DNA from: a virus
Lineage: Duplodnaviria > Heunggongvirae > Uroviricota > Caudoviricetes
DNA: 39,530 nt
Virus record (IMG/VR): IMGVR_UViG_2718218228_000004
Strand: one strand, 5' to 3'
The position numbers are program-made. Every line of letters starts with the position of its first letter. The first letter of the stretch is position 1. This document shows, in pieces, positions 9,001-12,000 of this stretch.

Positions 9001-12000
9001 GCGATGAAGTGACTGGAAAAATGATAACGCGGGATAATCCACCAATCCCGGGAAAGCAATCGCTGGCGAAGGTGACGTCAATTCCTCTGGTCAGTCCGGT
9101 TGAGTTTTCGACATCATCGTGGCGGCGGGCTGTTCTGTCTCTTGAAGAACATCATAAAGCCTGGTTGTTGTGGTGTTACAGCGGGAGTATTTGTTGGGAA
9201 TATCAGATCGCGATAACACAGTGGGCGTGGAATGAATTTAATACTCAATCCGGTACCAGAAAAATTGCAGGGAAAACGCAGGAACGCCTGAAAAAATTAA
9301 TCTGGCTGGCGGCGCAGGCAGTAAAAGCAGAACTTTTTGGTGGGGAAGGTTATGAATACAAGGAGCTGGCATTACTGGTGGGAGTGACAACTAAAAACTG
9401 GTCCAAAACATTTACTCGTCACTGGGTTGCAATGAAACACATTTTTCACCGACTGGATAGTGAGGCTTTATTGTTTGTAATGAGAACGCGTTCAAAACAA
9501 AAGGCGGCATTTTCAAAGCAAAGTGTTGCAAAAGTAGATTGAAAGGCATATATTTCATGCAAATCTGATATTTTGCCGATTTTGTACGTGATGGCAAAAG
9601 CAAACAAAACCCGCCCACAAGCGGGTTTTTTTGTGCCACTTATCTCGGATAGACATGGTGAATGCGCTGGTGGAGGAAGCAAGGGTAATTTTTAACCAGG
9701 TGATTCTTGAATGCTTGCAACATTGATTTCGTAACGTTATTATCCTGCGCCCGGCCCTTTAGCTCAGTGGTGAGAGCGAGCGACTCATAATCGCCAGGCC
9801 GCTGGTTCAAATCCAGCAAGGGCCACCATCACATACCGCCATTAGCTCATCGGGATAGAACGCCAGCCTTCGAAGCTGGTTTCGCGGGGTTCGAGTCTCC
9901 GATGGCGGTCCATTATCGGTATTCTGCGTTTTTAGCTCAGCCGGACAGAGCAATTGCCTTCTAAGCAATCGGTCACTGGTTCGAACCCAGTACAACGCAC
10001 CACACTTATTTTCCCTCGCTCGCTTTTGCGGACCTTTTTTGTATCCGCACCACGCCCGGCGCATACCAACCACAGAGCCTTTCGGGGGGAGCTTATGGAG
10101 TGGTCAGTGTGACTTTCTCTGTGGGCAGATCGCTCCCGGGCGTTGGCTCACCCACCCAAAGGAACGTCACGATGTTTGGTATTTTTGGTAAAAAAAGCCC
10201 GCAGAGCGGCAACGGAAATTAAAAAGTTTGAAAAACGCGATCTGGCACAGGTGGTGATTAACGCCGCATACCTGGTGGCCTGTGCAGATGGTGAATGTGA
10301 GGCTTCCTAGAAAGCGAAGATCGAACAGGTACTGCGTAATCAGCCTGCGCTGTACGCGTTTACGTCAGAAATTAATGCGATTAGCGCAACCATTATCGGT
10401 CAGCTGGATACGAACTTTAAAACTGGTCGTCGTGCGGCGTTACGTGAGATCGAGGATGTGAAACACGATACGCGTGAAGCGGAAGATGTGCTGGATGTGG
10501 CGGTGGCCATTGCGGAGGCAGACGGCGAAATTGAGCCGGAAGAGCGCAAGGTGCTGGAAGAGATTGCCGGTGTTCTGGGTCTTCGTCTGGAGAATTACCT
10601 GTGACGGTAAAACTGCGCCTGACTGTGGCTGCACTCCTGCTGTTTCTGGTGGTGATGGTGGATTTCACCAGCAGAATCATGTCGGTGCTGGCGGATGGGG
10701 TGCTGGTCTGCGGCATTATGGTATTGCTGTGGCCGGTGATAAAAAGAAACAGCCTGCATAATGCTTGATTTTTTTGTTTGCTGTTTATTAAAAACACTTC
10801 TGCATGGTGAATCCCCCTGTGCGGTGGGGCAATCAGCAAGAAGGAATATGGGGTAATCGCGGATTCAGGTGCTGGTACTGAATTCACCGGGAGGCACCCG
10901 GCACCATGCTTTGCCACAAAAGTGTTATTTCTGTTTTTCTCAAACTATCATCGTTATCCCTTTATTTCCGGCTGCGCATGGCGCGGCCTTTTTTTTACGA
11001 CCAGCCACTGGCAGATGGTCATCCTGTGATTTGATTCCGATTCCGGCTTTTTAACTCTGTTCCTGTACACGGGAGAAATTCGATGTCGATTAAACATTAT
11101 GATGTTGTCAGGGCGGCGTCGCCGTCAGACCTTGCGGAAAAGCTGACACACAAACTGAAAGAGGGCTGGCAGCCATACGGCGGACCGGTTGCCATTACGC
11201 CGTACACACTGATGCAGGCGGTGGCTATTGAAGGAGAGCCACAGGTCGGCCCTTCATCTGAGCCGGATTGGTACTACGTCATCGTACTGGCCGGGCAGTC
11301 CAATGCCATGGCTTACGGTGAAGGGCTTCCGCTGCCGGATTCATACGATGCTCCGGATCCGCGCATTAAACAGCTGGCGCGCCGCAGTACAGTGACGCCG
11401 GGCGGGGCTGCCTGCAGATATAACGATATTATTCCGGCTGACCACTGTCTGCATGATGTGCAGGATATGAGTACGCTGAATCATCCGAGGGCTGACCTGA
11501 GCAAAGGGCAGTACGGCTGTGTCGGCCAGGGTTTACATATTGCCAAAAAACTGCTCCCGTATATCCCGAATAACGCGGGGATCCTGCTGGTACCATGCTG
11601 TCGTGGTGGTTCGGCATTTACCCAGGGCGCGGAGGGGACATTCAGCGAGTCCACGGGGGCCAGTCAGGATTCGGCACGCTGGGGGGTGGGCAAGCCGTTA
11701 TATCAGGATCTGATTTCCCGCACAAAAGCGGCATTGCAGAAAAATCCCAAAAACGTTCTGCTGGCCGTCTGCTGGATGCAGGGTGAGTTTGACATGAGCG
11801 CCGCCACCCACGCACAGCAACCTGCGCTGTTTACAGCCATGCTGACACAGTTTCGTGCTGACCTCTCCGTGTTTAACGCGCAGTGCCATGGTGGCAGCGC
11901 TGCAGATGTGCCGTGGATTTGTGGTGACACGACGTATTACTGGAAAAATACATACGCTACCCAGTACGACACCGTGTACGGCGGGTATAAAAACAGGGAG

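Follow-up and report, generated by a model that had tools for sequence, protein, structure and literature searches.

In the Shiga toxin (Stx) 2a phage WGPS6, the toxin genes are preceded by three tRNA genes, named ileZ, argN and argO in its annotation, and are followed, 75 nt past stx2B, by a gene for a small RNA (sRNA) of the STnc100 family. In a 2026 preprint, STnc100 is connected with PasD and placed upstream of an esterase gene, and TerB (PF05099) is counted among the conserved neighbors of prophage Pas sRNAs (10.64898/2026.05.13.724894). Phage P1 carries genes named tciA, tciB and tciC, names that rest on homology to TerB alone, according to the P1 record note. Here we describe the locus that corresponds to the stxAB slot in a 39,530-nt stretch of DNA from a virus of the Caudoviricetes (IMG/VR record IMGVR_UViG_2718218228_000004; the whole stretch is hereafter the window). 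A tciA-tciB cassette occupies the slot, and its TerB-family gene tciA is very probably a pseudogene of two-step origin, in which an A6-to-A7 slip was followed by a TAG stop at the codon for Glu46. An initial annotation of the window had proposed a TerB-like pseudogene with two independent lesions, behind a tRNA trio and at the position of stxAB; the trio, the A7 tract and the TAG are all where it had placed them.

The reading frames of tciA and its two lesions are arranged as follows.

10159..10164, + strand: Shine-Dalgarno-like AAGGAA, 7 nt from the ATG at 10172 and 11 nt from the TTG at 10176, kept in all alleles
10172..10604, + strand: tciA (TerB-family) pseudogene, 433 nt from native ATG to native TGA, delimited by frames, homologues and the RefSeq flag
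10172..10222, + strand: 16-codon open reading frame (ORF) from the native ATG, MFGIFGKKSPQSGNGN, with its TAA stop at 10220-10222
10176..10178, + strand: TTG in the frame of the TerB body, the RefSeq start for A7 alleles, from annotation coordinates and a frame check
10190..10196, + strand: lesion 1, an A7 tract with a +1 insertion relative to the A6 of intact alleles
10308..10310, + strand: lesion 2, TAG in place of the GAG (Glu46) of intact alleles, by a G-to-T change at 10308

The TerB-like body lies in a different frame from the ATG, is broken by the TAG and ends at the TGA at 10602-10604. Since the closest intact alleles, those of phage JLK-2012, O145 RM9872 and 2013C-3342, have A6 between identical flanks, the A7 tract represents a +1 insertion; these alleles also have GAG and run continuously for 143 codons, so that both A7 and TAG disrupt the frame relative to close relatives with the same flanking sequence. 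Eight TciA homologues were aligned, drawn from phages of Klebsiella, Actinobacillus, Erwinia and Pseudomonas and from P1, and all eight keep Glu46 and an N-terminus of the form M-F/L-x-x-x-K-K; the native N-terminus of tciA, MFGIFKKK, is conserved across genera. From this conservation it follows that the ATG is the native start and that the residue struck by the TAG, within the first ADGxxxxxE motif, is a conserved one.

To establish the family of the protein, searches were run with the frame- and stop-repaired translation of 143 amino acids (aa), and the TerB assignment of the initial annotation was borne out. The Pfam TerB profile PF05099 matches with 39.9 bits (gathering cut-off 24.4; E 5.9e-10) over profile positions 7-109 of 118, and PHROG 632, 'tellurite resistance', matches over 143/143 positions (E 2.1e-68). 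The solved TerB structure 2JXU aligns with residues 15-137 (E 4e-7), with both acidic ADG...E motifs in register and Glu46, the position of the TAG, opposite a Glu. With TciA of phage JLK-2012 the repaired translation shares 96.5% identity, and P1 TciA is 40-51% identical at 100% coverage (tblastn). On sequence grounds, the gene is a tciA homologue within a tciA-tciB cassette, named after that of phage P1, and TciA is assigned as a 143-aa all-helical protein of the TerB fold.

Three combinations of the two variable sites were found among the sampled loci.

A6+GAG, in JLK-2012, RM9872 and 2013C-3342: intact
A7+GAG, in O157:H7 YB14-1 (locus L007): intact according to RefSeq
A7+TAG, in the window, in PV15-279 (two prophages) and in an O111:H8 prophage: pseudogene

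Because the A7+GAG allele occurs by itself, the frameshift and the stop are separate events, and the proposal of two independent lesions holds; because TAG was seen among these loci only together with A7, the slip preceded the stop. Codons 44 and 46 are the two at which a TAG allele from O157:H7 (L010) departs from the A7+GAG allele of L007. Two intact alleles differ from each other by 27 synonymous and 3 non-synonymous changes. The pattern of substitutions indicates that tciA was under purifying selection until recently and that its decay is young. At a 100%-identical locus, RefSeq lists a pseudogene, 'tellurite resistance TerB family protein, internal stop', and does not flag the frameshift. 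The tciA pseudogene is thus already known, being annotated in hundreds of public genomes.

The spread of each allele was counted in 5426 complete Escherichia coli genomes with allele-specific 55-mers, designed so that each 28-base seed includes the variable base. The TAG 55-mer occurs at 1006 places in 577 of the 5426 genomes, the GAG 55-mer, its context otherwise the same, at 928 places in 456, and an A6-specific 48-mer at 142 places in 118. The prevalence of A7 was gauged from the sampled loci and from exact protein look-ups, which returned the A7+GAG protein from at least 993 contigs and the 44-aa N-terminal fragment between TTG and TAG from 430. A 798-nt stretch containing the locus recurs with 100% identity in at least five independent complete genomes, and 807 genomes carry the complete 798-nt module, in 3123 copies altogether and with a median copy number of five per genome. 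These data bear on whether tciA is in fact intact and its lesions are sequencing or assembly errors, which would be conceivable in that homopolymer runs are error-prone in some chemistries. The identical sequence is present, however, in many independent complete genomes that come from different laboratories and different hosts, and an allele found at 1006 places in 577 genomes is no sequencing error; the O111 prophage shares both lesions, and the 44-aa fragment and a 48-aa C-terminal fragment (992 contigs) are both widespread as protein entries. The population data have already refuted this explanation, to which we assign practically no probability.

We propose the following course of events. 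The late operon of the window prophage carries tciA-tciB in place of stxAB, between the tRNA genes and the STnc100, nanS-p and lysis genes, and the cassette would be transcribed from the promoter-like site ahead of the tRNA genes (9715-9743) or by read-through from pR' antiterminated by Q. The slip in the Lys-Lys codons first put the native ATG out of frame, where translation stops after 16 codons, and the G-to-T change then turned the codon of the conserved Glu46 into TAG. Translation in the TerB frame, whether begun at the TTG at 10176 or reached by a +1 slip, ends after 44 codons, so that two thirds of the domain, the second ADGE(x)4E motif among them, are not reached. Since the product is cut short at codon 46 of 143, we infer that the window allele yields no functional TciA.

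Several points weigh against describing the locus as decaying cargo. The A7 tract, which the initial annotation had taken to be inactivating, is a real +1 insertion and yet ambiguous in effect: A7 alone may not silence tciA, since an in-frame TTG lies 4 bases after the ATG and restores the frame, and RefSeq counts A7+GAG as an intact gene for a 142-aa protein started at this TTG. Beyond the two lesions the tciA frame shows no further decay, its differences from intact alleles being mostly synonymous, and the word 'decaying' therefore rests on two events only. An intact partner gene, tciB, means that the cassette as a whole cannot be called dead. As to function, no experimental test of TciA or TciB was found in the searchable literature, and tciABC of P1 appears in a CRISPRi essentiality table only as non-essential (PMC10695390). 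The interpretation given in the initial annotation is supported, with refinements: tciA is broken, and recently so, and only half of the cargo is dead.

On a rival view, the TAG would be the sole effective lesion, and the A7 allele would be expressed through TTG initiation or through +1 ribosomal or transcriptional slippage, with the A7 and poly-G tracts tuning or phase-varying expression. The A7+GAG allele does have an open frame of 142 codons, bears an intact annotation and is abundant, and the GAG 55-mer in window-like context is present at far more places than the A6 48-mer. A poly-G tract also lies upstream.

10084..10089, + strand: poly-G tract 5' of tciA, 83 nt upstream, its length differing between alleles

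The tract is uninterrupted in A7 alleles, with six G in the window, ten in L007 and 14 in the O111 prophage, and reads G5TG in all five alleles without A7; it may be prone to slippage. The TTG, however, has the poorer spacing from the Shine-Dalgarno sequence (11 versus 7 nt for the ATG) and overlaps the ATG; most ribosomes would thus be expected to initiate at the ATG and to terminate 16 codons on. A TTG start would moreover replace the N-terminus that is conserved across genera, the stop appeared in an A7 allele and became widespread, which selection already relaxed would predict, and divergence is too low for the open frame to be evidence of selection. We therefore hold it unlikely, if far from negligible, that the TAG was the only effective lesion. 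More improbable still is the specific proposal that A7 and the length-variable poly-G form a contingency locus by which prophages of enterohaemorrhagic E. coli (EHEC) tune or phase-vary TciA through TTG initiation or slippage. Were it true, tciA would be an accessory gene of the late operon that takes turns with stx in one slot, and the A7+GAG allele would keep it functional at low expression; in the window, the TAG would have ended that function anyway. An annotation caveat applies as well: the native ATG of the A7 allele does not read into the TerB frame, yet RefSeq calls the allele intact from the TTG.

The remaining way for tciA to work despite its stop would be as split products, an N-terminal 44-aa piece and a C-terminal fragment, or through read-through of the TAG or a suppressor tRNA. 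A 48-aa C-terminal ORF is indeed present (GTG 10458-10604, + strand) and has a PHROG family of its own, 3920 (E 9e-36), and the prophage has tRNA genes. The GTG at 10458 is poorly spaced, however, with GAGG just 2 nt upstream; PHROG 3920 is accounted for by gene callers annotating the tciA remnant; and split products would be without residues 47-95. A suppressor tRNA reading TAG is ruled out by the three phage anticodons, CAT, TCG and TCT. To this explanation we give very little credence, and the two-step pseudogene remains the preferred reading. The entry for the 48-aa remnant is an instance of a pseudogene fragment seeding a protein family. An antisense ORF (10417-10917, 166 aa, minus strand) found no support and was treated as spurious.

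The second gene of the cassette follows directly.

10589..10593, + strand: GGAGA, Shine-Dalgarno sequence of tciB, 7 nt before its GTG, read from the sequence
10601..10768, + strand: tciB (DUF3927), an intact 55-codon gene for a small membrane protein, from Pfam and PHROG

Its GTG start overlaps the tciA stop as GTGA, and its hydrophobic 55-aa product matches Pfam DUF3927 (E 1.7e-16) and PHROG 1470, 'TciB-like' (E 1.8e-29). Among the O157, O111 and UTME-3 loci the protein does not vary; four further E. coli loci (L007 to L010) show one or two residue differences, and the exact protein of the window is found on at least 995 contigs. tciB should still be translatable from its own Shine-Dalgarno sequence, uncoupled from tciA. 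An adjacent pair of tciA and tciB on the same strand is also found in P1, JLK-2012, Erwinia ChrisDB, Fostie, Kp4871-1 and pPE4. Judging from its homology to TerB, a product of the ter operon, intact TciAB probably has an envelope, membrane-stress or exclusion function. The PADLOC defense-system models gave no significant match for TciA or TciB, and the pair is therefore not filed as a known defense system; NCBIfam gave only sub-threshold matches to DjlA and YmfL.

To delimit the slot, the window was aligned with Stx2a_WGPS6 by blastn, in which homology on the left runs through window position 10051 and resumes at 10784.

10052..10772, + strand: tciA-tciB cassette in the stxAB slot, without homology to Stx phages, from blastn breakpoints
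10773..10945, + strand: STnc100-family sRNA gene, the right border of the slot (Rfam RF02076, 98.8 bits; gathering 47)
10970..10996, + strand: terminator-like hairpin with a T8 tail, 5' of nanS-p, from the site scan
11083..12933, + strand: nanS-p-type sialate O-acetylesterase gene (DUF1737, SASA and DUF6645 in Pfam), labeled 'SASA family carbohydrate esterase' in RefSeq

This alignment confirmed the placement in the stxAB slot that the initial annotation had proposed, STnc100 following stx2B in the one case and tciB in the other. In the window the sRNA gene begins 5 nt past tciB and upstream of nanS-p; elsewhere it lies 104 nt past argO (phi296) or after tciB (JLK-2012 and L007). Phage phi296 represents an empty slot, the same flanks being about 70-80 nt apart. 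As judged from these alignments, the borders of the slot are sharp and conserved, and three states are observed: stx2AB (about 1.36 kb), tciAB (721 nt) and empty. The cassette thus has the character of slot cargo, lying between Q, pR' and the tRNA genes on one side and the lysis genes on the other, with flanks homologous to Stx phages and an unrelated interior. By the classical definition a moron has its own promoter and terminator; a consensus scan showed no + strand promoter-like site within 10003-10172 and no terminator-like site between tciB and the STnc100 sRNA, and a weak or non-sigma-70 promoter may still be present.

When the 129 phage records matched by TciA were summarized by organism name, no Stx-converting group appeared, and in about 218 Stx-named phage records the match to the window interval was confined to the flanks. 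The order Q, tciA, tciB, lysis genes recurs in Escherichia phage Fostie, Actinobacillus phage pPE4 and Klebsiella phage Kp4871-1, which makes tciAB a regular occupant of this site in the late operon. A constant association of tciAB with tRNA genes was rejected, tRNA genes being present within about 1 kb in only 4 of 10 sampled lineages (the window type, JLK-2012, P1 and Erwinia ChrisDB, as opposed to Fostie, pPE4, Kp4871-1, Lana, AF and SP154). The linkage is recurrent, not defining, and may merely reflect shared insertion hot spots.

Upstream of the slot, the following features were identified.

8847..9542, + strand: antiterminator Q gene (Pfam Phage_antiter_Q, E 4e-91), labeled 'bacteriophage antitermination protein Q' by RefSeq at the identical locus
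9526-9554, + strand: pR'-like promoter, from a scan for promoter-like sites
9606-9629, + strand: tR'-like hairpin with a T7 tail at 9626-9632, read from the sequence; the scan listed it on the opposite strand
9715..9743, + strand: sigma-70-like promoter TTGCAA-17-TATTAT directly 5' of the tRNA genes, a consensus match only
9753-9828, + strand: tRNA(CAT), ileZ-type (ARAGORN; Rfam tRNA)
9836-9912, + strand: tRNA-Arg(TCG), argN (ARAGORN; Rfam tRNA)
9926-10002, + strand: tRNA-Arg(TCT), argO (ARAGORN; Rfam tRNA)
10014..10045, + strand: degraded copy of the post-argO terminator hairpin, from comparison with related phages

The functions of the pR'-like and tR'-like elements are putative and are taken from the architecture of lambdoid phages. 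The intact post-argO hairpin, GGCTCGC-TTTT-GCGGGCC-T6, has a free energy of about -14 kcal/mol in the O111 and UTME-3 loci and in the Stx2a phage; two base changes destroy it in the window and in PV15-279, and its loss could allow more read-through into the tciA-tciB cassette. Separately, L010 (NZ_AP018488.1 2114727-2119781) holds, at about 2250-2395, a second TAG-bearing copy of tciA in that O157:H7 genome, one from which all three tRNA genes are missing: a deletion that spans about 390 nt, with ends apparently at short CCCGG repeats, fuses the tRNA promoter region to a point 33 nt upstream of the tciA ATG.

The window as a whole is a degraded Sp14/CP-933U-like lambdoid prophage of E. coli O157:H7.

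6663-6837, + strand: sok antitoxin RNA in the early region (Rfam RF01794, 114.9 bits)
12975-14282 and 16185-17487: two IS3-family insertions in opposite orientations, on either side of the holin/lysozyme region
32547-36076, + strand: tail-tip gene gpJ, broken at about 34470 into two neighboring ORFs, one of 640 aa and one of 534 aa
38517-39530, - strand: gene for an EspF-repeat protein (TccP/EspFU type, six repeats), extending past the window end

A prophage of PV15-279 aligns with the window and carries espJ and an EspF-repeat (TccP/EspFU-type) gene; the EspF-repeat gene in the window, together with espJ at the homologous PV15-279 locus, thus identifies an Sp14/CP-933U-like effector-carrying element. 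Each IS3-family copy has an ALIL pseudoknot match (121.5 bits) and an rve transposase ORF, and both are missing from the PV15-279 prophage, which is otherwise 99.9% identical to the window. The lesions of tciA are consistent with a prophage that is degrading generally, as seen in the two insertions and the split gpJ. The split gpJ is a further sign of a defective prophage, and gpJ of PV15-279 is frameshifted too. At the place homologous to the sok RNA, hokD is annotated in PV15-279.

Taken by itself, the locus is of little importance, and the phage TciA-TciB pair is widespread. The interest of the locus lies in the stx slot of lambdoid prophages as a sharply bounded exchange site, limited by the argO/terminator region on the left and by STnc100 on the right, and in an alternative cargo of that slot that is being lost, one gene first, in a degraded effector-carrying O157:H7 prophage.

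Compared with known systems, the cassette shares with the stxAB moron of Stx2a_WGPS6 its slot, with the tRNA trio and about 49 nt on the left and STnc100 followed by nanS-p on the right. The cargo, in contrast, is unrelated: about 1.36 kb of stx2AB corresponds to 721 nt of tciAB, with no sequence in common inside the slot. TerB of the terZABCDE operon (2JXU, Klebsiella pneumoniae) resembles TciA in Pfam family, in fold class and in two aligned motifs of the ADGxxxxxE type. It is nevertheless distant (E 4e-7), and the window is without terC, terD and terZ, the partner of TciA being the 55-aa TciB. In P1, a full-length TciA homologue is likewise directly followed by a TciB homologue, with tRNA genes adjoining (tRNA-Asn/Thr and tRNA-Ile(CAT) flank the pair). 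Unlike the window, P1 has a third gene, tciC, keeps an intact copy and has its operon outside the late-operon slot between Q and lysis genes. EHEC lambdoid prophages resemble the window in carrying pairs that RefSeq annotates as 'tellurite resistance TerB family protein' and 'DUF3927 family protein'. Finally, the O55:H7 prophage JLK-2012 differs from the window in having an intact A6+GAG allele and tRNA-Asn/Thr/Gly in place of Ile/Arg/Arg, and shares with it the whole arrangement of Q, tRNA genes, tciA, tciB, STnc100, nanS-p/yjhS and holin.

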